NCBI GenBank assembly: GCA_048940925.1
Contig: JBHLOC010000004.1
Coordinates: 1-64,000 of the forward strand
Source of the DNA: Promethearchaeota archaeon
GTDB taxonomy: Archaea > Asgardarchaeota > Lokiarchaeia > Sigyniarchaeales > SOKP01
DNA length: 64,000 bases
Direction: 5' to 3'
Position numbers and translations under genes: made by a program. This document shows, piece by piece, positions 1,344 to 54,754 of this stretch. Below the pieces are notes generated by a model. It was given only the letters and a program-made list of their open reading frames with translations, made no database searches and was not told the origin of the DNA. Position 1 is the first letter of the stretch; every line of letters begins with the position of its first letter.

Positions 1344-3026
1344 ATGACCGTTTTAACAACCGAAAAAAAGTTTGATTTATCCATTAAGGATATTCTGGAG
1401 GATAAATTAACTGAGACAAAATCAATGAAAAAAAGTCTGTGGAAAATAATTGCGAAGAATGAGATAAGACTCAGAACAAGTTGGACAAGAAATCATAGAA
1501 TATTATTTTTCGTTGTATTATATGGAGTTTTAGGACTATGGGCTTTCATCTTTGCTCCCCTTCTTTTTGATTTGTTTATACCAACATTAGCCTCTCAATT
1601 CTCCGATGTTTTCAAACCTGTTGTCGCAATACTAATCGAGTCTTTTATGATGACATTGTTTTTAATACTGATAGTGTATCCTTTAAATAATATTTATAAG
1701 GGGGAAGATGAGTTAGGATCCAAAGAAACATTGCTAGCTACACCTGTTAAAGTCAATGATATATTCCTTGGCGAATTTTTAGGAAAAGCTCCAATTTATA
1801 CAATAGCTGTTTTAATTTTTGCTCCAATTGTAATTGGAATGGTAAATCCTATTGTTGATTTAACATTTGTTCAATACCTTGTAATTTATGGAACTATTTT
1901 CGTTTTTGTATATTTTGCTAATTTAGTCGGCTCAATTATGGTAAGTTGGATTGAACATAAAATTTCTAAAAGCGAAAAAGCAAGGGAACTAGGGAAGATA
2001 TTAATATGGATTATAACAATTGCTATGGTAGCAACAATGTATGCAGTGATGTTTTTCCTAAATGAATTAATGGCACATCCAGAACTAAAAAATTGGTTGG
2101 CATTTTACCCATCTCTTTGGTTCTCAAATATTATCTTATATAGTATCGATGCAACTTTGATTGAACCATTCATTTTAAATATATGGATTAATATTCTACT
2201 GGCAACTGGCGTCCCTGTCGCAACATTATATATTTCATACAAAAAAGCTGAATCATTTTATACTTTAGAAGGTGGTATTGAAAAAAGTAGCATAACTATT
2301 GTTAAACATGAAAATATATTTTACAGATTCATAAGATTAGTCTCTGGACATAAATATGGAAGCTTGACCGTCATGCAATTAAAGAGATTTTTCAGGAAAA
2401 AGTCGAATATTGCTAGAATTGCATATGTAGTCGGCCTTCTTGGATTTATGACTTGGTTTATGTCAAGAATGGATGAGGATGGAGAAGCATTAATTATGAC
2501 TTCATCAATGTTAATTATGTTAGGAGGGGCAATGTCAAGCATAATATTAGGACATCTTATTTTCATCGATTCAAAGGATATCGTCTGGGTGTACAAGAGA
2601 TCGCCACGGGGTATAAAAGGAGCTGTAAATTCCTATTTGATAATGATGTTTATACTTAGTATTATTATAACCATATTCACTACGATATTACGTTCATTCT
2701 TCATTACTATTGATATCATCGAGACCTTGATTTTCTTTTTCCTATTCCTAGCAAATATGGAGATTTGTATGCTCCAAGCAGTAGGTTTACAATGTAGATC
2801 ACCTGCCTTTGGAGAAAAAGATTCAAATATGAAAGGAAATGCAATGATCTCAATGCTGATAATGCAACCTGTAATATTTGCGCCTATGTTTCTGCTAATC
2901 GTATTACATCCAAATTCAATGGTGCTAGCTAGACTTATTTTATTAGGACCAGTATTTCTCTATAATCTTGCTATCGGTATTCCACTGATGTATATTGGCA
3001 TGAAAAAATTGAATAAATTGGAATAA
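1344..3026 (+). CDS. ABC exporter permease (multi-TM, two-half type)
   Basis: About 12-14 TM segments, follows the ABC ATPase; ATG at 1344 after GAGG is preferred over the overlapping 1260 start. Confidence 0.8.
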   Translation: MTVLTTEKKFDLSIKDILEDKLTETKSMKKSLWKIIAKNEIRLRTSWTRNHRILFFVVLYGVLGLWAFIFAPLLFDLFIPTLASQFSDVFKPVVAILIESFMMTLFLILIVYPLNNIYKGEDELGSKETLLATPVKVNDIFLGEFLGKAPIYTIAVLIFAPIVIGMVNPIVDLTFVQYLVIYGTIFVFVYFANLVGSIMVSWIEHKISKSEKARELGKILIWIITIAMVATMYAVMFFLNELMAHPELKNWLAFYPSLWFSNIILYSIDATLIEPFILNIWINILLATGVPVATLYISYKKAESFYTLEGGIEKSSITIVKHENIFYRFIRLVSGHKYGSLTVMQLKRFFRKKSNIARIAYVVGLLGFMTWFMSRMDEDGEALIMTSSMLIMLGGAMSSIILGHLIFIDSKDIVWVYKRSPRGIKGAVNSYLIMMFILSIIITIFTTILRSFFITIDIIETLIFFFLFLANMEICMLQAVGLQCRSPAFGEKDSNMKGNAMISMLIMQPVIFAPMFLLIVLHPNSMVLARLILLGPVFLYNLAIGIPLMYIGMKKLNKLE

Positions 3027-3053
3027 TAATCTCTAAGCTGAAAAATATATACA

Positions 3054-3073
3054 ATTTTTTTTCTTTTTTTTTT
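3054..3073 (+). terminator. oligo-T archaeal terminator candidate
   Basis: Near-pure T run about 30 nt after the permease stop. Confidence 0.45.
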
Positions 3074-3126
3074 GGTATGTTATCAATTAAAGAATAAACA
3101 AAAATAAATGAAAGGAGGAGAAATAA

Positions 3127-3225
3127 ATGAACAAGGTATTACTTTTAAGAATCATATTATTTATTGCATTTTCGGCAATATTTATAATATTTCTTATGAT
3201 GTTCTTAAATAATACATCTTTTTAG
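3127..3225 (+). CDS. 32-aa single-TM micropeptide
   Basis: MNKVLLLRIILFIAFSAIFIIFLMMFLNNTSF, with strong SD AAAGGAGGAG at 3111-3120; below the ORF-track cutoff. Confidence 0.55.
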   Translation: MNKVLLLRIILFIAFSAIFIIFLMMFLNNTSF

Positions 3226-3232
3226 TTTTAAG

Positions 3233-3883
3233 GTGAAAAAAATACCAGAAAATATTGATTTAAAGGAAATTGAAAAAAAAACATGGAGATCTACACTTCA
3301 AGATGGAATTTTAGATATTTATTTTGGTATATTAATTTTAGGAATTGGTATGGGCATGACCTTAAGTCATATTTTACCTGATCCTTTAGATATGATATCA
3401 GTAGCAATCTTTCTTGGAATTGGGCTAACTTTTTTTATTTTAGGGAAAAATTATATTACCAAACCTCGACTTGGATTTGTTAAATTTGGATTTCAACAAA
3501 AAGCTCGCAAGATTAAGACTATTATAATACTATCTATTAATTTTTTTGCAATATTAATTATTAATTTAATAAGGTTTACAAATCCAGACTCAATCCTTAG
3601 ATTTCCAGGAATTTTAGATGGACTAATAATTGGCTTATTATTCTTAACAGCTCCCTTATTCTTTGTTGCTTATATCTTGCAATTTCCCCGATTATATTTT
3701 TACGCGATTTTGTTTGGGATAAGTTTCTTTTTGTCTGAATTATTTGCAATTTTTATACCAGAACCTTTAGACACGTTAATAACATTCAGTATTATAAGCG
3801 GTGTTGTTATATTTGTGGGAGTTATATTTTTGATTAAATTCATTCGAAAATATCCAATACCAAAAGAGGAGATGACTGAATAG
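3233..3883 (+). CDS. six-TM membrane protein, paralogue 1
   Basis: Shared motifs IDLKxIEKK…DG(I/F)xD…PRxGFVK…PRLY…FI(R)KYP with the next two genes. Confidence 0.8.
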   Translation: MKKIPENIDLKEIEKKTWRSTLQDGILDIYFGILILGIGMGMTLSHILPDPLDMISVAIFLGIGLTFFILGKNYITKPRLGFVKFGFQQKARKIKTIIILSINFFAILIINLIRFTNPDSILRFPGILDGLIIGLLFLTAPLFFVAYILQFPRLYFYAILFGISFFLSELFAIFIPEPLDTLITFSIISGVVIFVGVIFLIKFIRKYPIPKEEMTE

Positions 3884-4522
3884 ATGTCAGAACATATTGA
3901 TTTAAAGACTATTGAGAAAAACGTTCTTAAAACAGCTCATCAACATGGTTTTCTTGATATGATATTTGGTTTTGTATTAGGAGGAATGGCATTTGGTCCT
4001 ATTTTCCGTGAGAGTTTACCTGCGCCATATAAATATTTTCTATGGCCACTAATTCTTATTATTATAGCAAGTATATTGGTTTTCACTGTTGTTAAATACA
4101 TTATTCAACCTAGAATGGGATTTGTTAAACCCGGTCCGTCGCTAAGATCCACTAAAAAGAAGTTACTCATAGTTGTCTTAATTAATTTTATAATATTATT
4201 AGTTTTTTTCATTTTACCATTGATTGGTATAGGTTTGGGGATACAAGTAGGAGGAATTGTTTTTCTATTACTTATTGGCTTGTTTTTTATGCCTGTTTTC
4301 ATTGTAATTGCTTATTTACTTAAATACCCAAGATTATATTTGATAGGAATGCTAATATGGCTTGCTATTTTCATCAATGAACTATTATATACTTCTTTGG
4401 ATTATAGAATTAGATGGTTTTTCTCATTTGGGATTATTGGAAGCATCATTTTTATTATGGGATCAGTAATTTTTATACGTTTTCTTAAAAAATATCCACT
4501 TTTAAAAAAGGAGATGCCATAG
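3884..4522 (+). CDS. six-TM membrane protein, paralogue 2
   Basis: Same motifs as 3233..3883; directly abutting it. Confidence 0.8.
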   Translation: MSEHIDLKTIEKNVLKTAHQHGFLDMIFGFVLGGMAFGPIFRESLPAPYKYFLWPLILIIIASILVFTVVKYIIQPRMGFVKPGPSLRSTKKKLLIVVLINFIILLVFFILPLIGIGLGIQVGGIVFLLLIGLFFMPVFIVIAYLLKYPRLYLIGMLIWLAIFINELLYTSLDYRIRWFFSFGIIGSIIFIMGSVIFIRFLKKYPLLKKEMP

Positions 4523-4525
4523 ATC

Positions 4526-5191
4526 ATGCCAGAAGATATTGATTTAACTGTACTCGAAAAAAAAGTGTACCAACGTTATTTTGAAGACGGTATTTGGGAC
4601 TTATTTCTTGGAATGATTATTTTTAGTTTAGGATTTGCACCACTTTTTAGTTTATTTATCAATATTCCTGATCCTTGGAATTATATATTCCCAGCGTTAG
4701 GAGTGAACATTCTTGCTTTGTTGATATTTTTTTTCGGTAAAAAGTATATTACAGTTCCACGTATAGGATTTGTAAAATTTGGACCAAAGCGTAAGGCAAA
4801 ACAAAAAAAATTGAGACTGTTTCTATTCATTGTATTTATTATAAACATTATCCTAATCATTCTGCCTATAACTGGGATATCAAGTCATATTCAGATTGAA
4901 CAATATATTCTAAGTCTTTTAATTGGATTCGGAGCTTTTACGTTACCTTTTTGTGTAGTTGCATATTTTTTAGATTTCACTAGGTTATATTATTATGCTT
5001 TCTCCATAGGATTAGGATTTTTTTTAACTGAATTACTAGCATCAACTTTTGGAGGTCCTTTTAATATGAGTCTCATCTTTTGCGGCATTGGAGGGATAAT
5101 ACTAATAATTGGTTTGATTTACTTCATTCGTTTCTTAAAACAAAATCCTCTACCAAAAGACATCCCAAAACAGGAGGTGGCAGATGGCTAA
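4526..5191 (+). CDS. six-TM membrane protein, paralogue 3
   Basis: Same motifs; overlaps the start of the wHTH gene. Confidence 0.8.
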   Translation: MPEDIDLTVLEKKVYQRYFEDGIWDLFLGMIIFSLGFAPLFSLFINIPDPWNYIFPALGVNILALLIFFFGKKYITVPRIGFVKFGPKRKAKQKKLRLFLFIVFIINIILIILPITGISSHIQIEQYILSLLIGFGAFTLPFCVVAYFLDFTRLYYYAFSIGLGFFLTELLASTFGGPFNMSLIFCGIGGIILIIGLIYFIRFLKQNPLPKDIPKQEVADG

Positions 5192-5516
5192 GGACGCAAG
5201 AAAAATTAGTGATGATATTCCGTCTCCTACAGAAATAGATAAGATAATACATGAGCCTGCTCGCCTGATGATTATGTCTTATCTCTATGTAGTGGAAGGA
5301 GCTGATTTTATTTTCTTAAAAAATCAAACTGGTCTAACTTGGGGAAATTTATCTTCACATATTACTAAGCTCGAAGATGCTGGTTATGTGAATGTAAAAA
5401 AAGAATTTGTTGGTAAGAAGACTCGCACCCTTCTTAGTCTAACGGATGTTGGTAGAGATGCGTTTCGAGATTATAGACAAAAAATGGACGATTTCCTTAA
5501 AGGTTTACCTAAATAG
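5184..5516 (+). CDS. winged-helix transcriptional regulator (MarR/ArsR-like, HTH_34 type)
   Basis: IHEPARLMIMSYL…LTWGNLSSHITKLEDAGYV…GRDAF. Confidence 0.9.
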   Translation: MAKDARKISDDIPSPTEIDKIIHEPARLMIMSYLYVVEGADFIFLKNQTGLTWGNLSSHITKLEDAGYVNVKKEFVGKKTRTLLSLTDVGRDAFRDYRQKMDDFLKGLPK

Positions 5517-5518
5517 AC

Positions 5519-5673
5519 TTAGTTAAAAAAATAAAAATAAAAAAATTTAAAATATGAATAATTTGAATTCTTAAAAAATTTAACAACATTCACCATGTTC
5601 ATGGTTATGATCATGCCCACAACTACACGTATTGGGTGGATCTGGCTCACAATTAGTATCAACAATTTTAATT
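5519..5673. repeat. 155-bp direct repeat, copy 1 (orphan slyD 3' end plus downstream A/T tract)
   Basis: Matches 7051..7205 with 2 mismatches (5637, 5646). Confidence 0.95.
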
Positions 5674-5835
5674 GAGTTACTTAATCCAATTGTAGGCTCT
5701 TTTCTGGCTCCTATTCTAACTTTAGGTGCGACTGGAGGGATTATAGTAATAATAGGATTGTATTACTTTATTCATTTCTTAAACCAATATCCTTTGCCAA
5801 AAGAATTACAAGAGAGAGATGTGGAGGATGGTTGA
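5674..5835 (+). pseudogene. 3' remnant of a six-TM membrane paralogue
   Basis: ELLNPIVG…GGIIVIIGLYYFIHFLNQYPLPKE…EDG aligns with the C-terminus of 4526..5191; 5' part replaced by the slyD fragment. Confidence 0.8.
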
Positions 5836-6181
5836 AAAAGAAAAAAACAAAAACAGCGACAGCCTCACGCCTCCTACGATAGATAAAGTAATACATGAAC
5901 TTGTTCGCCTATTAATCGTGTCTATATTATTTGTAGTAGAAAGCGCAGACTTCCTTTTTTTAAAAAACCAAACAGGGTTAACATGGGGCAATTTATCTTC
6001 ACATATTACTAAGCTCGAAGATGCTGGTTATGTAAATGTCAAAAAAGAGTTTGTTAAAAAGAAGACCCGTACCTTACTTAGTCTTACTGATGCTGGCAAA
6101 GAGGCATTTCGACAATACAAAAGAAACATTGAAGAAATAGAGGAGTATGCTAGAAAAATTAGTAAAGCTGAATCAAAATAG
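5828..6181 (+). CDS. winged-helix transcriptional regulator, second copy
   Basis: Close paralogue of 5184..5516 (identical FLKNQTGLTWGNLSSHITKLEDAGYVNVKKEFV); GGAGG before ATG 5828. Confidence 0.88.
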   Translation: MVEKEKNKNSDSLTPPTIDKVIHELVRLLIVSILFVVESADFLFLKNQTGLTWGNLSSHITKLEDAGYVNVKKEFVKKKTRTLLSLTDAGKEAFRQYKRNIEEIEEYARKISKAESK

Positions 6182-6199
6182 ATAAAATAGATAAAATCT

Positions 6200-6907
6200 C
6201 TACATTAATGCACTGAACATCATTTCTAAATCATCATCATTATATTGAAAATCAAGTTCAATTGAAAATGGTCTTCCAAACTTAACCCCTATAAATGAGT
6301 CTCCTAGATCATGTCGAAGTACACCATAAAAATCTGATACAGGGACTTTTCGTAAGGCAAATTCTAAAGCATAGATTAATTCATCGAGCTCCTTTCTAGA
6401 AAAATCAAAAGGATTAAAATTTATTTCAGAACTAAAATCATTAGGAAAAATATCGTTTCCCAATTCATCAATATAAGAATCCCACCCTCCCAATGCGAAT
6501 CCTGACTGACCATAATAAAAAGAAGCAGGAAATCTTTTATCATTAGGAGTCCTAATAAATACCCAAGAATCAAATAGGATCTCCCCCAAATCTCTTCCAA
6601 ATTTAAGATTAGGAATAAGAGTCTTCAATGAACCTGCAAGGAGTATATCAGACTTATCCTCTTGAATTAAAAATTTGACTAGATCTTCCTTTCTATCTCT
6701 AAGGAAATGCCAAGGAGTCTTTATTTTTCTATGAAAACTTACCGTACAAAATTTACTGCTTTCTATAGTAACTATAAAAGACTCTTTTGAATTAAAAGGA
6801 TCTCTAAATACGAACCCATAACCATTACTTCCAACCGCACCTTCTTCTATATGATCTATACCTTCAGAGGCTTTAATAACTAAGTCTAATAATTCTAAAA
6901 TGTCCAT
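6200..6907 (-). CDS. hypothetical protein
   Basis: 235-aa ORF with no recognised motif. Confidence 0.6.
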   Translation of the reverse strand: MDILELLDLVIKASEGIDHIEEGAVGSNGYGFVFRDPFNSKESFIVTIESSKFCTVSFHRKIKTPWHFLRDRKEDLVKFLIQEDKSDILLAGSLKTLIPNLKFGRDLGEILFDSWVFIRTPNDKRFPASFYYGQSGFALGGWDSYIDELGNDIFPNDFSSEINFNPFDFSRKELDELIYALEFALRKVPVSDFYGVLRHDLGDSFIGVKFGRPFSIELDFQYNDDDLEMMFSALM

Positions 6908-7050
6908 CTCTAAAATAAAAGAAAAAATTTAAATATTTAAATTGGAATAAGTTGAAATTTTTTGATACTAATCATCACTAATAAAGAAAATCAATTAAAC
7001 AAAGCTGAGATGGTCTATTTGCTATAATATCCCTTGCTTTCTCAGAAGCA

Positions 7051-47066: not shown

Positions 47067-47410
47067 AATAAAGTAATTTGTTACTTAAAATTTAAGATTT
47101 CGATTTTTGTGTTATTTATTCTTTTATGTAGAATTCTTACAAAATCTTTTGTTATAAATTTAAAACTAATTTTTCTCTGACTATTTCATTTAGATTTTTA
47201 AGATAAAGATTTAACTATTAGATATAAGCAAGAAATAAAGAATTATAAATTATTTTAGAGTTTATAGAAAAAATTTTTATTATATATATTTTATGGTTTT
47301 TGTCGATTCCGTATTTATAGTTAAACATGAATACCGCTAAATATATATGGATAAATTGGTATGTAAATAGTGTTCATAAATTTTAGTGATTTTTTAAGTA
47401 GAGGTTTTCT

Positions 47411-48634
47411 ATGAGTGATTTAAACAGTATTCCGGAATTTTCAAAATATTTTCGAGCGATTTCTCCTTCAGAAATCAATATTAATAACGAAGATATATTT
47501 TATCGCGATAAATATAATGAAATTTTAAATTTTATTAAGTTAAATTTGACGAACAATCAAGATTTGGTATTAAAAGAGTATGTAGAGCCAAAAGGCGCCA
47601 TTTTATTATATGTAAATCGGGGTACAGACATATTAGATTTTTTGAAACTAATATCAATGAATTATTATATAGATTTTATTGAATATAATGATAATGAGGT
47701 CATTAAAACTCCTGAAGACTTTATAAAAAGTTTGAGTTCTATTGTTAAGGTATTGAAAGCTAATATAGAAAAAAGCACTGAACTAAATAACAAAAAGAGA
47801 TTGTTTTTAATTAACCAACATATATTTCGTAATCAAAATTTCACAGGAAAGAATTTAGTGGAATTTTTTATAAAAGCGCAACAAAATGGTAAAATTAGAT
47901 TTAATTGCAAAGAGTTAGACCTAATTTTAGTTTGGATCAATTATGATCTTAAGGAAATCAGATCAGTCTCAGCAGATTTATATGATATATTTGATCTATT
48001 TCTTATAATAAATATGTTAAACCAAGTTGAACGAGAAACAGTGTTTCGAGATTTCTTAGAAAAAAATCCAAAGATCGTGTTTGATATTGATGAAATAGTA
48101 AAAAACACACAAAATTGGGAAGTAAATAATATTAAGCAACTTTTAAAAATTGGAATTTTAAAGCATTTTATAAATTATGAGTTAAATAGTAAAAGTAATG
48201 AAATTACAGATAGTCTTCTTAATTTAATTAAATCAGGTGAATATTTACCAACACTCTCAACCAATACACCAGAAATTTCAGATGATAAAGATATCAAGGG
48301 TGAAATTGTTGGAACAGAGAATGTTTCTTTAAAAAAAGAACGGGAAAGTGTTGAACAGATCAACGATGCAGATAATTTTGCTGAACAAATTCGAGAAACT
48401 CGTATTTCAGATTTTATGTTAAACCAATTATATGAAAATGCTGCTTCGAAGCATTATAATGAACTTCTTATTATTATTGATAAACTGAAGAAAAATGAAC
48501 CGTTAGAAGAAAATGATAGGAAATTATTAGCAATATACCCATTCATCTTAAATGAATCTCCAAATAGAGCACAAATTAATTTAGAAAAGGCAAAGAAAAG
48601 AGTGGATCGTATAAAACAAGTTTTTGGTAATTGA
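47411..48634 (+). CDS. degenerate (inactive) AAA+ ATPase-like protein
   Basis: PKGAILLYVNRGTDILDFLKLIS sits where PKGILLYGPPGTGKT would; FD..L.I…ER..F…D.DEIV..T.NW…IKQL resembles the AAA lid. Confidence 0.6.
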   Translation: MSDLNSIPEFSKYFRAISPSEININNEDIFYRDKYNEILNFIKLNLTNNQDLVLKEYVEPKGAILLYVNRGTDILDFLKLISMNYYIDFIEYNDNEVIKTPEDFIKSLSSIVKVLKANIEKSTELNNKKRLFLINQHIFRNQNFTGKNLVEFFIKAQQNGKIRFNCKELDLILVWINYDLKEIRSVSADLYDIFDLFLIINMLNQVERETVFRDFLEKNPKIVFDIDEIVKNTQNWEVNNIKQLLKIGILKHFINYELNSKSNEITDSLLNLIKSGEYLPTLSTNTPEISDDKDIKGEIVGTENVSLKKERESVEQINDADNFAEQIRETRISDFMLNQLYENAASKHYNELLIIIDKLKKNEPLEENDRKLLAIYPFILNESPNRAQINLEKAKKRVDRIKQVFGN

Positions 48635-48656
48635 AATTAAGTAAGATGAGAAAAAT

Positions 48657-51600
48657 TTGGCTTCTCAATCAAAAAATAATCAAAGAAAAAAAGAATTGAA
48701 TTATTCTGAAAATAGGAAGATTTTCATTAAGAAGGTTATTTTAGAAAATTTCCTATCCTTTCAAAAAGATGAAGTAGATTTTGGGGATGCTAAATTTATA
48801 ATAATTGTTGGTCCAAATTGGAGTGGAAAGACATCGATTTTTCAAGCTATCAAATTTGCGTTGGGTAGTAATGAAAGAGATGAGAGGTATACAAAATGGT
48901 CAGATTTCATTAGAAACGGTCAAAATCATGCTATGGTCGAGATCCATATACAAAATGATGGAGAGCTAATAAAATTAAGGCGTTATGTTATTAAAGGGCA
49001 ATCTCCGTATTTTAAAATAAAATTAAAGGAAGATAAAGAATTTAGAAAAATCCAAGCACTTGAAATTCAAAAATTGATTAGAACATTAAATATTAATCCT
49101 GACAATCAATTTGCTTTTGTTAGCCAAGGAAAGATTGATGCTGTTAAAAATTTAAAGTCGACAGAGTTGTGTTCTTTCCTGGAAGAAGGAATTGGGCTAA
49201 AAAGTTTGAGAAATGAGATATTGCAACAAAAATCAAATGTTAATAATTTAAATACTGAGCTTAAATCATTAATGAGCAAAAAAAATACGTTAAATATAAG
49301 TTTAGAATTTCTAACTCCTAAGTTGGAACGTTTAAAGAAAAAAAATAAGCTATTAGAAATTAGAAATAAATTCCATGATGAACTCTTATGGGCAAATAAA
49401 GATAAATTACAAAAAGAAATTATCAGAATTGAAGAATTCGTTAAAAACATCATACTTGTAATCGAAGGGATTAAAAGAGAAAAAACAAAGTATGATAAAA
49501 AAATCCTAGAGTTAGTAAATGAAATTGTTACTGAGGAACAAAGTATTAACAAACTTTCAGAAAAATTAGGAGAACTGAAATATAAACAAATAGACTTAGT
49601 AGCAAAAATAAAGAAGTGGCAAAAAGATAAAATATTAGTAAAACAAGACTTAGATGCTTATTCTCAAAATATCGATCGAATTGAAAAATTAGTAATCAAC
49701 TTTGAAATGCAGAAAGAGAGTCTAAACGATGAGATAAAAATAATGACAAATGAAATCACTCACCTTGAAAATCAAATTGATAAGCTCCTAAAAGAGCAAA
49801 ATCAACTTATAAAAAAAATCAAACAAAATAAACTTCTGCTAGATGAATATAATCAAGTGATTTCTGAGAAAACCAAAAAGATAAATATTATTAAAGAAAA
49901 TGAAAACTCAATTAAGGCTATAAATGATGAGATCAATCAGTTATTTCAGAGTTTTAAGGATATAGAGCATAAATTAAAAAAGAATAAATGGTTTTTGGAA
50001 AATCCAACTAAAAATCTTTTAGAAAAGCTTGATAAGCAGTTAAGAGAATCTTCAATAAAAATCTTTGAAATTGATTCAGAAATAAAGAAACTGGAAATTG
50101 AAAAATCCAGAAAACTAAATAAATTAAAAATCTTACAAGCTTCACTTAGGGAACGTCGAGTTATTCTCCCCTCTACAATTTCTATTTTAAAGGAAGAGAT
50201 AAAAAAAAGAGAGTTAAGAGTTAAAGGTCCTATTATTGATTATCTTAAATATGATGATGAGTTAAGTTATGCTATAGAGTCCGTTTTAGGGGAAAAATTA
50301 CTTTATAGTTTTATTGCTGAGGATTGGGATACTTTAAATTTATTAAAGAGATTAAAAGAGAAGTATGGAGCATACTGTAACCTCTATTTACCAAAAAAGA
50401 TAACCTTACAGCCTTTAATGAGAATTTCTGCAGAGGGAGTTGTGGGTTACATTGCAGAATTAGTAAAATTTGTAGATAATGATGTAGATATTAAAAAAGT
50501 AATTTACTCCAAAGTAAAAAATTGTATTGTTGTGAGAGATTATCGTTCTGGAACAAATCTTTATAATAAACTTAATTTCCGAGGGAAATGTGTCACCTTA
50601 AAGGGCGAACAAATAGTTTCTTATAAATATGTGTATGAAACACCTTATATTAAGAGATTGAAAGGATTATTAAGTGCAGCAACCCAAAAAGAACAGTCAA
50701 GCATTTTAGAATCAGAAGTTAATATCTTGAATGATAAGATCTCAGAATTAAAAATCAAACAATCAAGCTTTGACAATATTCAAAAAGAGATTTTTAAGAA
50801 AAAAGAAGCCTTCAACGACCTTTTATATAATTTCAATCAAAAACAGAGAATAACGACTAAAAAGAATGAATTATATGAAGAAATGCATAATTTTGAAAAA
50901 AATAATTCATCTTTAAAAAAAGAGATTCAGGATTTAGATCTTAAAATAAAAAGTCTACAAACCCATACTGATTCTGAATTTTTTAAATGGAATGATAGGG
51001 TTAAAGAAATACCTAATGAATTATCTTTTTTAAATGAAGAAAAGAAAAAGTGGGATCTAAAACGGAAAGAGAATTTAGATATTTTAAAAGAAGTACAAGA
51101 TAAATTATCGAAGCATAAGAACCAACTTATTCTATTAAAATCGGAATATGAAAATAAAAAAGAAGATTTCCAGAAAGCAGATAAATCTGCTTTTAATACA
51201 TACAGGCAATTGGAAAATGTAGAAGAAGAAATTAATATAATAGAACAAAAGATTTCAGAGTTAAGAGAAACAAGAATGAAACTCCAAAAAGAAAAAAGTC
51301 AGATCGAAAATAATAACATGCAAACCATTTTAAAATTAGAACAAGAGAATGTCAAGTTAAATTCATATAATCAAGATCTTGAATCCAAAAAAAATGATTT
51401 AAAAAGAATTAACTCTGAAATAGGCCCTTTAATTTCTGAACAAATCATGAAACTCCGTTCAATTAAGGAAATTGAGAAAGATATCCTACAAATCGATGAA
51501 AAATTGCTTAATTATTTGGATGTAGATGACTCAATTGTAGTCGAAAGAGATCAAATCATTGCTTCATTAAAAGAAATATCAAAAAATCAAAAAGATTTAG

Positions 51601-52124
51601 AAAATGATATTAAAGCAGCTATTAAAGCTGAAAGTAAATTAGAAAATACTTATAACAACAAATTTAGTATAGTTCTTGAAAATCTTCAAACTAAAATAAA
51701 TCAAAAATTTGAGGATTCTCAAATAAAATCATATTGTTCTCTTGAACTTTCAGGAAGTTTTGAAGATCTAGGAGTTGAGATTAAAGCTGCTACGTCAAAA
51801 GAACAATTGAAATCATTTACTGCATTAAGTGGGGGCCAAGTTTCTTTAATTTCAATCTGTTTAATTTTATCATTACAAGAGATTAAGCCTTCTGCTCTTA
51901 CTATGCTAGATGAGCCAGGTATGTTTTTAGATGAAAAAAATTCTGAAGTAGTATATCAATTAATAAAGGCAACATTGGAACAAAACCCCATTCAATTATT
52001 CATGTTTTTACCTAAATCTTCAACTTCATTATTTATGCTAGCTGAAAAGGTAATTGGAATTGCGAGAGTGGGGAAAAATGAAATTTCTTCAGTTTTTAAA
52101 CCTAAAATTCTAAAAAAGAAATAA
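48657..52124 (+). CDS. SMC ATPase, Smc5/6-like
   Basis: IKKVILENFLSF, GPNWSGKTS, LNINPDNQFAFVSQ, coiled coils, hinge (GPIIDYL…AIESVLG…CVTLKGE), LSGGQ, LDEP..FLD, QLFMFLPK. Confidence 0.92.
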   Translation: MASQSKNNQRKKELNYSENRKIFIKKVILENFLSFQKDEVDFGDAKFIIIVGPNWSGKTSIFQAIKFALGSNERDERYTKWSDFIRNGQNHAMVEIHIQNDGELIKLRRYVIKGQSPYFKIKLKEDKEFRKIQALEIQKLIRTLNINPDNQFAFVSQGKIDAVKNLKSTELCSFLEEGIGLKSLRNEILQQKSNVNNLNTELKSLMSKKNTLNISLEFLTPKLERLKKKNKLLEIRNKFHDELLWANKDKLQKEIIRIEEFVKNIILVIEGIKREKTKYDKKILELVNEIVTEEQSINKLSEKLGELKYKQIDLVAKIKKWQKDKILVKQDLDAYSQNIDRIEKLVINFEMQKESLNDEIKIMTNEITHLENQIDKLLKEQNQLIKKIKQNKLLLDEYNQVISEKTKKINIIKENENSIKAINDEINQLFQSFKDIEHKLKKNKWFLENPTKNLLEKLDKQLRESSIKIFEIDSEIKKLEIEKSRKLNKLKILQASLRERRVILPSTISILKEEIKKRELRVKGPIIDYLKYDDELSYAIESVLGEKLLYSFIAEDWDTLNLLKRLKEKYGAYCNLYLPKKITLQPLMRISAEGVVGYIAELVKFVDNDVDIKKVIYSKVKNCIVVRDYRSGTNLYNKLNFRGKCVTLKGEQIVSYKYVYETPYIKRLKGLLSAATQKEQSSILESEVNILNDKISELKIKQSSFDNIQKEIFKKKEAFNDLLYNFNQKQRITTKKNELYEEMHNFEKNNSSLKKEIQDLDLKIKSLQTHTDSEFFKWNDRVKEIPNELSFLNEEKKKWDLKRKENLDILKEVQDKLSKHKNQLILLKSEYENKKEDFQKADKSAFNTYRQLENVEEEINIIEQKISELRETRMKLQKEKSQIENNNMQTILKLEQENVKLNSYNQDLESKKNDLKRINSEIGPLISEQIMKLRSIKEIEKDILQIDEKLLNYLDVDDSIVVERDQIIASLKEISKNQKDLENDIKAAIKAESKLENTYNNKFSIVLENLQTKINQKFEDSQIKSYCSLELSGSFEDLGVEIKAATSKEQLKSFTALSGGQVSLISICLILSLQEIKPSALTMLDEPGMFLDEKNSEVVYQLIKATLEQNPIQLFMFLPKSSTSLFMLAEKVIGIARVGKNEISSVFKPKILKKK

Positions 52125-52133
52125 AAAAGTTGT

Positions 52134-52766
52134 ATGATTAAAGAATTAAATAAAAAAATTGAAAATATTAGAACTAAGGTTCTTTCCGGAGAAATATCTT
52201 TATTAGATATAGAACTGGTTCCAATTTTTGAATATCTAAAGGATTCATTAACTGTGGATAATATTGATAAGTATTCAAAAACCTATCAAAGGGCATTTAC
52301 ACTTCTAAATGAGAAATTTGAAGAATTTAAAATCTTACTAAATCACTTAGATAACGAAAATGTCTTCATAGAGTTTTTAAAATCAAAACCAAAAGATAAA
52401 GAGATTTATGGACTGCTTAAGGATTGTTGGAGACAACCATTCACAATCCATAATCTCTCTATCAATTTTCTTAAGCGATCTAAAGATAAATTAAGTTCAA
52501 GTAACAGAGAATCATTTGCTATTGAAATAATAGAAAGAATGAAAGTAAAGAACGATTTTTTTTTAGAAGTACCAACACAGAAATTTACTGAAAAAATGTT
52601 AGACTTTTTCGATGCTATAAAGCGTAAATTGCCTTGCCCTTTTGATGATGTTTTTAAAGATGAAAAAGATCAAATAAAAATATATGAAAAATTTGTTTTT
52701 ATTTTACACTTACTACAATTAGGGAGTTTAAAATATCAAAAAGAGAGTAATTTTTTATATTTGTGA
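52134..52766 (+). CDS. kleisin (ScpA/Nse4-like)
   Basis: Follows SMC; N-terminal ISLLDIEL and C-terminal wHTH FVFILHLLQLG.L. Confidence 0.65.
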   Translation: MIKELNKKIENIRTKVLSGEISLLDIELVPIFEYLKDSLTVDNIDKYSKTYQRAFTLLNEKFEEFKILLNHLDNENVFIEFLKSKPKDKEIYGLLKDCWRQPFTIHNLSINFLKRSKDKLSSSNRESFAIEIIERMKVKNDFFLEVPTQKFTEKMLDFFDAIKRKLPCPFDDVFKDEKDQIKIYEKFVFILHLLQLGSLKYQKESNFLYL

Positions 52767-52783: not shown

Positions 52784-53299
52784 ATGAATGAAATTACAAT
52801 TTTAATGCACTTATTAAGTAGGAAAGTAAATTTGTTTGAAATAGGAGCAACCAAAGAAGAAGTGTTAAACGCTTTAAATATTAAAGATAAAAATAAATCA
52901 ATTTATTTTCAAGATTTGATTACTAATTTATCAAATTACATCGAACCCTTAGGACTTCAAATTCGATTCAATCCGTTGAATTCTCATTGGTTTATTCTTT
53001 TTAATTCAGATGTTTCAGATTTTGTATCAGCAAATCCTTTTGAAGGAAAACCAAGATTAGCTGCAACTTTATTTTGTACGTTAGTTTGTTGTATGAAGAA
53101 TTTCGGAACTGGTAAAATTCATGAGATTCGAGAATTAAGGAAAAAAAAAGGGATTATCGAGGATTTAAATGAATTAAAGAAGATGGGATATTTGGAATTA
53201 AAGAAAGATTCGGGTGAAGTTAAATTATCCCCTCTTATAGGATATCAACTTGACCTTGAAAAATTATTTATAAAATTAGCATTAAAATTTAAAAAATAG
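52784..53299 (+). CDS. kite subunit (ScpB/Nse1/Nse3-like tandem winged helix)
   Basis: L..YIEPLGLQI…W, AATL, DL.EL.KMGYL…LSP; follows the kleisin. Confidence 0.65.
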   Translation: MNEITILMHLLSRKVNLFEIGATKEEVLNALNIKDKNKSIYFQDLITNLSNYIEPLGLQIRFNPLNSHWFILFNSDVSDFVSANPFEGKPRLAATLFCTLVCCMKNFGTGKIHEIRELRKKKGIIEDLNELKKMGYLELKKDSGEVKLSPLIGYQLDLEKLFIKLALKFKK

Positions 53300-53306
53300 A
53301 AAAATA

Positions 53307-53942
53307 CTACTGACTAGTAGTAATTTCTAAAATCATTTCTGCAACACGATTGTTATATTTCTCAATTTCGTCAAAATTATCAACAGTTTCTCCACATGTT
53401 ACAAAAAACTCATTGATCGCAATTTTTCGTTTTTCAAAAAAGTTTTTGATTTTACTCGTTACTTCCTGAACTTTCTTTTCCATATCTCCTTCTACTAAAT
53501 CGACTTTATTGATGCATACATAAATTTTATCAGGGAAAAACCGAACATCATTAAAGAATTCAAATTGTCTCTCTAATTCACGATCCATTGAAAAGACCGC
53601 TATAATCTGGGTTGCAATGCGAGAGATGGTAATAATACCCATTTTCACTACGGCCCTAGACCTGTCGCCACCAGGGGCGAAAATAGTATGCGCCTTATTG
53701 CTCTCATCTTCCCTAAACACAATTCGATTGGGATGGATGGTTTTTGTTTCTTTTTCGTCTAGAGCACTCTCCTTATTTCCTCCAGGAACAGTTGCTTCTC
53801 CAGAAAAGTCTGCCTTAACTACAGAACATTTTATTCCTCCTTCTACTTTTTCGATTTCACCTTTTTTTAAGTATCGAACAAAAAGGCGAAGGATACTGGT
53901 CTTTCCAACGCTAACATCACCTAACAATCCAATGTTCACCAT
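53307..53942 (-). CDS. small GTPase (MglA/Ras-like)
   Basis: G1 GDVSVGKT, G2 KTIHP, G3 APGG, G4 NKVD, G5 TCG. Confidence 0.85.
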   Translation of the reverse strand: MVNIGLLGDVSVGKTSILRLFVRYLKKGEIEKVEGGIKCSVVKADFSGEATVPGGNKESALDEKETKTIHPNRIVFREDESNKAHTIFAPGGDRSRAVVKMGIITISRIATQIIAVFSMDRELERQFEFFNDVRFFPDKIYVCINKVDLVEGDMEKKVQEVTSKIKNFFEKRKIAINEFFVTCGETVDNFDEIEKYNNRVAEMILEITTSQ

Positions 53943-54754
53943 TATGCTTCTCCCTCCAATAGTTTATTTAAAAGTAATTCGTAATCTGTAATTATAAATT
54001 GTTCAAGAAAGGCATTATTATGAGCATTAATAAGAGCTACTAATATTTCTTTTAGATTTTTAGCGTTCTTTGAGTATTTTATCAGATTTTCTGAGGTGGG
54101 ATCTTCAGTAAAATCTCTGGCATGTTCCTCGAATCCAAATTTAGATAATTCAGGCAAGGCATTGAAAAATCCAAAAGCTGAATATCCTTGAAATTGGAAA
54201 AATACAAAAAATCTTGTTTTAATATTTTTTATAATCTGAGTAAGATAGGCGGATGGATAAATTTCTCCTAATGTTAGTTCTTCATCCTGTTTAATTATAA
54301 AATAAGGAGAAATTGGAGATACTTGAGTTCCATACATTTCTTTTGGAGGTATAGAAATAAAGGGTAATTTTTCTGAGACAATTGTCCAAAGATCTTCTCT
54401 TTTCTTTTCTAATAAGATATCTTTTATCTCATCGTAAGCAAAAAAAAAGTCTGATTGAAATCCTAATAGAGAGCTTAAGTATACTGATAAAGAAGCGAAT
54501 GTAGCTTCTAAAACCGGTCTTCGCCCTCCATCATCCTCAGAGGGTTTTACAGCTCCCTTCCACGCTCTTAATCCGGAATATGCAAAGGATTTAACATCAA
54601 AAAATGCACCTGAAAGAAATAAAAATGAGGGGGGTTCGCTCTTATCACCAGTTAAAAATTCTAAAGATTTGTTAATTAAGACACTCTCTAACTTCGCATC
54701 ATGAAATTTGGAGTGAACCTTTGGCATTTGTAGCCATGATTTCTTCTTCGCCAA
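53942..54754 (-). CDS. hypothetical protein translationally coupled to the GTPase
   Basis: 270-aa ORF with TAATG overlap onto the GTPase start. Confidence 0.75.
   Translation of the reverse strand: MAKKKSWLQMPKVHSKFHDAKLESVLINKSLEFLTGDKSEPPSFLFLSGAFFDVKSFAYSGLRAWKGAVKPSEDDGGRRPVLEATFASLSVYLSSLLGFQSDFFFAYDEIKDILLEKKREDLWTIVSEKLPFISIPPKEMYGTQVSPISPYFIIKQDEELTLGEIYPSAYLTQIIKNIKTRFFVFFQFQGYSAFGFFNALPELSKFGFEEHARDFTEDPTSENLIKYSKNAKNLKEILVALINAHNNAFLEQFIITDYELLLNKLLEGEA

Follow-up and report, generated by a model that had tools for sequence, protein, structure and literature searches.

The window described here is a stretch of 64,000 nucleotides from Promethearchaeota archaeon (GTDB lineage Archaea; Asgardarchaeota; Lokiarchaeia; Sigyniarchaeales; SOKP01), comprising positions 1 to 64,000 of contig JBHLOC010000004.1 in assembly GCA_048940925.1. 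The gene at positions 47411-48634 codes for P0001, a protein that has the fold of an AAA ATPase (ATPases associated with diverse cellular activities) and lacks the catalytic motifs of this family. The gene leads a four-gene operon, the other members of which encode an SMC (structural maintenance of chromosomes) protein and its kleisin-like and kite-like companions. The layout of the operon is as follows.

47067-47410, + strand: AT-rich intergenic region of 344 nt, the presumed promoter region of the operon, divergent from a major facilitator superfamily (MFS) transporter gene
47411-48634, + strand: pseudo-AAA gene (P0001), 407 amino acids (aa), ATG start, TGA stop, gene 1 of the four-gene operon
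48657-52124, + strand: divergent second SMC, 1155 aa, TTG start, with PF02463 and SMC_hinge matches
52134-52766, + strand: kleisin-like gene, 210 aa, recognized by its operon position and a weak match to the ScpA C-terminal winged-helix domain
52784-53299, + strand: kite-like gene, 171 aa, tandem winged helix, recognized by winged-helix matches

The stop codon of the pseudo-AAA gene and the start codon of the SMC gene are 22 nt apart. This spacer is fixed by an in-frame TAA at 48642, because of which the SMC cannot start earlier than the TTG at 48657. The gaps between the SMC, kleisin-like and kite-like genes are 9 and 17 nt. No terminator-like sites were found in a scan of the + strand between 47000 and 53600, and there is thus none between the pseudo-AAA gene and the SMC. 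A sigma-70-type promoter scan of 47067-47410 was uninformative, the model being unsuited to archaea.

The P0001 sequence taken by itself has no match in Pfam, NCBIfam or the PDB. It has 564 homologs at E <= 1e-3, all of them unnamed proteins of Asgard metagenome-assembled genomes (MAGs), and a search of 1.8 billion proteins yields 93 representative clusters that match it. A profile built from 49 members of the family matches the D1 and D2 domains of VAT/p97/Cdc48 in the PDB with E-values of 5e-22 to 1e-19 over profile positions 58-256, and CdvC/Vps4 and Msp1 with E-values of about 1e-12. The PF00004 cutoff, which P0001 does not reach, is reached by the distant family members P0175, P0210 and P0192, and the P-loop of P0175 still reads GPLGTGKS. 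The AlphaFold2 (AF2) model of P0001, with a predicted local distance difference test score (pLDDT) of 82.5, has the β1-P-loop-helix arrangement, strands β3, β4 and β5, and a helical lid. Foldseek searches with this model return Msp1/ATAD1, p97, PAN, Rpt subunits and Vps4 at E-values of about 1e-8. The model, the Foldseek matches and the profile all display the α-β-α core of a P-loop NTPase together with the helical lid. P0001 is a descendant of a classical-clade AAA ATPase (Cdc48/PAN/Vps4).

Two more specific identities were considered and rejected. P0001 is not Vps4/CdvC: the stretch ahead of the AAA core is only about 60 residues long and gave no domain match (no MIT domain), and the motifs are degenerate. 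It is not an anti-phage AAA protein of the IetA type either, having no PADLOC match and SMC, kleisin and kite genes as its neighbors.

The polypeptide can be divided into three parts, the first of which carries the remnants of the AAA motifs.

47411-48265, + strand: degenerate AAA module, residues 1-285, consisting of an N-linker helix, the α-β-α core and a four-helix lid, as seen by AF2, the profile and Foldseek
47615-47635, + strand: degenerate P-loop NRGTDIL, residues 69-75, where GPPGTGKT is expected; Lys is replaced by Ile and Thr by Leu
47702-47722, + strand: pore-loop-1 position IKTPEDF, residues 98-104, with no aromatic-hydrophobic-Gly motif
47798-47818, + strand: strand β3 RLFLINQ, residues 130-136, with NQ in place of the Walker B pair DE
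47981-48010, + strand: remnant of the second region of homology YDIFDLFLII, residues 191-200; the FD pair is retained and the RPGR arginine fingers are gone
48266-48403, + strand: disordered acidic linker, residues 286-331, pLDDT < 50, isoelectric point (pI) 4.4
48404-48631, + strand: conserved C-terminal helical domain, residues 332-407, pI 9.0, the signature of the family

The motifs were mapped with the help of hidden Markov model (HMM) alignments, a MAFFT alignment that included motif-bearing relatives, and the strands of the AF2 model. Strand β1 of P0001 (AILLYV, residues 63-68) directly precedes NRGTDIL, and the Walker B position is occupied by LFLINQ (residues 131-136) where hhhhDE is expected. 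The sensor-1 Asn is retained (WIN, residue 177). Of the attributes that define PF00004 proteins, P0001 is missing the Walker A sequence GxxGxGK[ST], the Walker B sequence hhhhDE, the arginine fingers and the aromatic residue of pore loop 1. Judged by these motifs, P0001 is an AAA-fold protein that would be incapable of canonical ATP hydrolysis.

The state of the motifs varies across the family. Among the 196 members of at least 300 aa that were surveyed, a G[TS]D remnant of the P-loop is found in 144. GK[ST] is present in three members and DE in another count of three, and no member has both. The f21 family (L059, L063) has GTGKT at Walker A and FIDN at Walker B; the f3 form (L066) has GPSGNGKT and IEN; and P0175, labelled Helarchaeales, has GTGKS and FDP. 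The Thor-type proteins read GPPGTDF at Walker A and YID[KQ] or Y[IV]E[KR] at Walker B, and the Loki-type proteins NPGTDI and INQ. As read from these motifs, the decay is graded between lineages, from an intact Walker A to the loss of all motifs.

The C-terminal domain is the most conserved part of the protein. In the AF2 model of P0001 its compact helical body spans residues 334-405, and the domain modelled alone with 22 diverse homologs has a pLDDT of 95.7. It is the only part of P0001 that a single-sequence search can find across classes. Comparison of the domain with the PDB gave no sequence match, only Foldseek E-values above 1, and VIA-align Z-scores of 4.7 at most. The only matches to it in the ESM Atlas belong to one Thorarchaeota cluster of proteins of about 357 aa, 98% of which carry PF00004; this cluster is a branch of the pseudo-AAA family. 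In within-genus pairs, the ratio of nonsynonymous to synonymous substitution rates (dN/dS) is 0.10-0.26 for the AAA module. In most of these pairs it is 0.2-0.55 for the linker and 0.03-0.14 for the C-terminal domain. Purifying selection thus acts on both folded parts, most strongly on the C-terminal domain, and the gene is not decaying. About 135 genomes have it with an uninterrupted reading frame.

The first-pass annotation of this DNA had described an AAA-like open reading frame (ORF) separated by 22 nt from an SMC gene downstream on the same strand, had placed the protein in the CDC48/Vps4/PAN clade, had noted a Walker A without GKT and LFLINQ at Walker B, and had set apart a helical C-terminal domain. 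The coordinates and the spacer turned out to be correct. The fold and clade agree with the PF00004 relatives, the family profile, and the AF2 model with its Foldseek matches; the reading of the motifs agrees with the HMM and MAFFT alignments, the strands of the model and the survey of 196 members; and the C-terminal domain is seen in the model as a body of its own beyond the disordered residues 286-331.

The SMC protein encoded downstream of P0001 scores 194 bits on TIGR02169, far below the cutoff. Its matches in the PDB are to Smc, Smc3 and Smc5, those to Smc5 and Smc3 being of similar strength. Its N-terminus is extended by about 22 residues, a basic segment shared by the members of the genus, and its Walker A contains a Trp (GPNWSGKT). 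The profile of the kleisin-like family matches ScpA C-terminal winged-helix domains weakly, with E-values from 0.026 (4i99_C) to 0.3. The kite-like gene matches winged-helix proteins; single members of its family match ScpB, DUF4194 or MAGE (one faint MAGE match, E 0.067), and the kite of the window has no ScpB match.

A second, more canonical SMC of 1484 aa is encoded on another contig of the same genome (C63), with TIGR02169 scores of 312 and 270 bits. Downstream of it come a 289-aa gene and then an ScpB gene (PF04079, E 1e-33). The presence of this separate SMC-ScpB operon makes the operon of the window an additional, non-ScpB one. Archaea of the TACK and Asgard groups possess two types of SMC operon, of which the non-ScpB type, including that of Prometheoarchaeum, has been named SMC5/6-related (bioRxiv 10.1101/2024.01.07.573240). 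The operon of the window has the composition of this type, that is, a second SMC, its own kleisin and a non-ScpB kite, located apart from the canonical SMC-ScpAB genes. The designation 'SMC5/6-related' is thus given to it by elimination and in accordance with the published classification (bioRxiv 10.1101/2024.01.07.573240). A reading of the operon as a defense system was rejected: neither P0001 nor the kleisin nor the kite gave a match in PADLOC, and the SMC scores far lower on the LmuB and JetC models than on SMC models.

The canonical SMC-ScpB operon (L065, contig C63:9000-25000) is also led by a gene of the AAA+ superfamily, an ORF at 3997-5157 coding for 386 aa. Its product is Orc1/Cdc6-like (TIGR02928, E 8e-14, below the cutoff; PDB 2qby_A, E 0.002) and has an unusual P-loop, GIDGVGKK. 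It was considered as a paralog of the pseudo-AAA gene and rejected, the hhalign probability being 0.2.

The profile-based searches for the pseudo-AAA family covered the Asgard phylum. The gene lies directly upstream of an SMC gene, on the same strand, in 29/29 close loci and in 20/20 distant ones (families f1, f2, f9, f10, f11 and f28). Together with the loci of f21, f3 and L070 described below, this arrangement is seen in 53 Asgard loci besides that of the window, belonging to at least ten families; the two genes often overlap, and kleisin-like and kite-like genes usually come next. The order of AAA-like gene, SMC, then genes of about 215 aa and about 170 aa, is kept in 22 of the 23 distant loci. 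The spacers in the distant loci range from about -38 to 54 nt, with the exception of L043, where the start codon is an artefact, and several of them are 4-nt overlaps. In f21 a longer form of 459-463 aa stands ahead of a shorter SMC (832-835 aa), and in f3 a form of 560 aa overlaps the start of the SMC gene. The conservation of the gene neighborhood was one of the checks called for by the first-pass annotation, and the linkage to SMC was kept in every family locus examined.

The same arrangement of an AAA-like gene followed by SMC is present in WJJB01000312.1 (L070), a MAG labelled 'Candidatus Bathyarchaeota'. GTDB places this MAG in the same phylum as the window, and the same Asgard loci are recovered when the phylum is sampled around it, so that its NCBI label appears to be mistaken. 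Although no other family member carries a label from outside the Asgard archaea, this MAG was rejected as evidence from TACK archaea because it belongs to the window's own GTDB phylum.

Two other profile matches were rejected, both of them lacking the C-terminal domain. One (L060, genome G226) is an ordinary PF00004 AAA protein followed by metabolic genes. The other (L061, genome G214) is an IetA-like, fully active AAA protein located beside an SMC-type protein resembling LmuB and mad3. In the latter locus (G214:C246:1-15000, positions 2933-7041 on the - strand) the AAA gene, with a PADLOC IetA match of E 4.5e-59, overlaps the start of the gene for the SMC-type protein, which is 1067 aa long and scores on the mad3, LmuB and JetC models. 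This pair is probably a defense-type system, unrelated to the operon of the window.

The co-distribution of the AAA-like gene and the operon was examined in 301 Asgard genomes, 149 of which are positive for the kite profile; related genomes in these counts are not independent samples. Both the AAA-like gene and the kite are found in f1 (63/68 each), f2 (7/7) and f21 (6/6). In f9 the AAA-like gene is found in 59 of 76 genomes and the kite in 62 of 76. Both also occur in f10, f11, f28 and f30, and in f3 the AAA-like gene was seen only upon inspection of the kite-positive locus. Neither gene was found in f7 (0/28), f14 (0/19), f16 (0/11) or f29 (0/11). The kite was likewise found in none of the 21 genomes of f24, where the only strong match to the AAA profile is the excluded IetA-like protein of G214.

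Five genomes of f7, f16, f24 and f29, inspected individually, have at most one canonical SMC each. Of the f1 genomes, five have no AAA-like gene, and in these the SMC is absent as well or the operon is cut by the end of a contig; in G144 (f1, 98% complete) all parts of the operon are absent with the queries used. Gain and loss of the pseudo-AAA gene coincide with those of the operon. A search with TIGR02169 at E <= 1e-15 found no SMC in G074 and G026 (f7, single contigs) or in G054 (f16), genomes that are 92-93% complete. The f7 and f16 families may be without a canonical SMC or may have a very divergent one.

Two further genes of the window, located at 53307-54754 on the - strand, are convergent to the operon. 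They code for a small GTPase-like protein (211 aa, weak GTP_EFTU match) and a 270-aa protein without a family match. These genes are kept beside the operon in other f1 loci (L043, L045, L046), and not in other families. A gene for a TFIIB-type zinc-ribbon protein (PF08271, about 118 aa) is found shortly downstream of the kite in 10 loci, nine of them Thor-type and one from f28. It follows the kite directly in most of the 10 (e.g. L041:13411-13767) and has no counterpart in the window.

The genomic evidence somewhat favors the reading of P0001 as a non-catalytic, dedicated accessory or regulatory partner of the second, SMC5/6-related SMC-kleisin-kite complex of Asgard archaea. Its gene shares an operon with the genes for the complex, as would be expected of a subunit, and this is conserved across lineages. 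The first-pass annotation had suggested a non-catalytic loader or adaptor of an Asgard Smc5/6-like complex. The pseudo-ATPase character of the protein, the conserved linkage and the matching spread speak for that suggestion; the 'Smc5/6-like' part of it comes from elimination and from the literature.

The following mechanism can be imagined for such a partner. The basic and most conserved C-terminal domain would dock on the SMC head or neck, the kleisin or the kite, or on the adjacent DNA, and the acidic flexible linker would tether the nucleotide-free AAA-shaped module to it. The dead AAA module might serve as a scaffold for protein binding, and in this role could control loading, tune the activity of the SMC ATPase or bring in a further factor. 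The f3 and f21 forms and the single Helarchaeales member, in which Walker A is intact and the Walker B Glu is missing, might use ATP binding without hydrolysis as a switch, and even this switch would have been lost in the Loki and Thor forms. A more specific version of this reading, put forward tentatively, is that the SMC5/6-type ring of Asgard archaea would contain P0001 as a fourth subunit in stoichiometric amount. P0001 would then be the relic of an AAA motor that once opened or loaded SMC rings, and may at present work without nucleotide as a gate, a loader or a regulator of the ATPase.

Several points weigh against a partnership of P0001 with the SMC complex. The partnership is argued from genomic context, the interaction being a predicted one, and the conserved position in the operon can be explained by co-regulation alone. 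The co-distribution is partly circular because the kite profile was built from loci that had been chosen via the AAA-like gene. The C-terminal domain does not match a known fold from which a binding partner could be guessed, and no longer or fused (Rosetta-stone) protein containing this domain was found, although the search for it was weak. Furthermore, in the Thor-type lineages the true partner could be a neighboring MoxR-vWA machine rather than the SMC itself.

This last point is related to an unlikely alternative: P0001 could be a transient adaptor for assembly, disassembly or turnover, in which a dead AAA protomer would recruit or regulate an active ATPase, either of the Cdc48/PAN type or a MoxR-vWA pair, on the SMC ring. 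The ancestor of P0001 was clearly a classical AAA protein, and Walker A is still intact in L059, L063, L066 and P0175. In 13 of 13 Thor-type, f10, f11 and f28 loci (L034-L042 and L047-L050; e.g. L041:3715-7153) the pseudo-AAA/SMC operon adjoins a gene for a MoxR-like AAA_5/AAA_3 ATPase of about 571 aa and a gene for a protein of about 600 aa that has a weak VWA_2 match (VWA, von Willebrand factor A). In L038 the two genes are directly upstream of the operon on the same strand. However, no MoxR-vWA pair is adjacent to the operon in the Loki-type loci, including that of the window. The MoxR ortholog in the window's own genome, 46% identical, is on another contig (C22:18220-19899; L079:7200-8927), unlinked to the SMC operon. 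Its neighbors are a haloacid dehalogenase (HAD) hydrolase and a methyltransferase, and no vWA partner was found beside it. The degenerate AAA-like proteins LAP1 and LULL1 are precedents for such an action, with Torsin as their target. They contribute an arginine finger, and the arginine fingers that a LAP1-like activator would need are absent from P0001.

It is rather improbable that P0001 is merely co-transcribed with the SMC and has some other chromosome-coupled or cell cycle-coupled role, sharing only its regulation with the complex. Genomic context is the whole of the evidence for a partnership, and the basic C-terminal domain (pI 9.0) could bind nucleic acid on its own. Nevertheless, the adjacency to SMC has persisted in at least ten Asgard families while all other neighbors have changed, the stop and start codons of the two genes overlap in several lineages, and the pseudo-AAA gene is absent together with the operon.

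The chance that P0001 binds or hydrolyzes nucleotide at a non-canonical site, with a functional G-T-D remnant of the P-loop, is very small. The remnant is widespread (G[TS]D in 144/196) and the sensor-1 Asn 177 is in place, but this one protein has lost the Lys and Thr of Walker A, the acidic residues of Walker B and the arginine fingers alike, and GK[ST] and DE occur together in no member of the family. Finally, the notion of a decaying pseudogene or annotation artefact, which the lack of Pfam, NCBIfam and PDB matches to the P0001 sequence might evoke, can safely be set aside in view of the 564 homologs, the frame intact in almost all genomes, the dN/dS values well below 1 in both domains and the confident structural models.

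P0001 as a putative partner of the SMC complex can be compared with several known systems. The classical AAA modules (p97/Cdc48/VAT, PAN/Rpt, Vps4/CdvC and Msp1/ATAD1; PF00004 with AAA_lid_3) have the same core and four-helix lid as P0001. Unlike them, P0001 has neither the catalytic motifs nor, at its N-terminus, a domain for substrate binding (MIT, double-psi barrel or coiled coil), contains a unique C-terminal helical domain, and has a sequence that is itself under the Pfam threshold. The lineages of the pseudo-AAA family form a clean natural series in which the change of an AAA motor into a scaffold could be studied.

The clamp-loader subunit delta-prime and LAP1/LULL1 are AAA+-shaped proteins that have lost nucleotide handling and serve as structural or regulatory subunits. 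P0001 resembles them in being AAA+-shaped and non-catalytic. However, they belong to other AAA+ clades, and the putative partner of P0001 is an ABC-type SMC ATPase and not an AAA+ protein. As to IetA of the anti-phage system IetAS, the motif-intact members of the pseudo-AAA family, as well as the unrelated G214 protein, score on IetA models. Nevertheless, the pseudo-AAA operon differs from a defense island: it is syntenic and single-copy, occurs almost universally in its lineages, and has no IetS protease.

SMC complexes are universal chromosome-folding machines. The SMC5/6-related operon of Asgard archaea is the proposed ancestor of eukaryotic SMC5/6 and has been treated as a three-part complex in published work. 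The three downstream genes of the window are of the same type as the published operon (bioRxiv 10.1101/2024.01.07.573240; PMC8665677), but here the operon is headed by a further, fourth gene that is conserved along with it. The publications on archaeal SMC5/6-related complexes that are cited here make no mention of an AAA gene (bioRxiv 10.1101/2024.01.07.573240; PMC8665677, Yoshinaga and Inagaki). A survey of Vps4-like ATPases in Asgard archaea is silent on SMC, and keyword searches of the literature found nothing. The near-obligatory fourth gene is strongly conserved and catalytically dead, and carries a new domain. The AAA fold and the SMC-kleisin-kite operon were already known, whereas the pseudo-AAA family, with an unprecedented C-terminal domain and a strict tie to the operon, is new, and none of these publications describes it.

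A functional analog of P0001 might be Nse5/Nse6, the loader and ATPase inhibitor of eukaryotic Smc5/6; like it, P0001 would be an additional factor, neither kite nor kleisin, that serves an SMC5/6-type complex. Nse5/6 are α-solenoid proteins (bioRxiv 10.1101/2024.01.07.573240), whereas P0001 has the AAA fold, and there is no similarity between them in sequence or fold. If P0001 is indeed a fourth subunit of the complex, it would be a prokaryotic functional counterpart of the Nse5/6-type loaders, and the graded decay of its motifs would record the transition from motor to scaffold.

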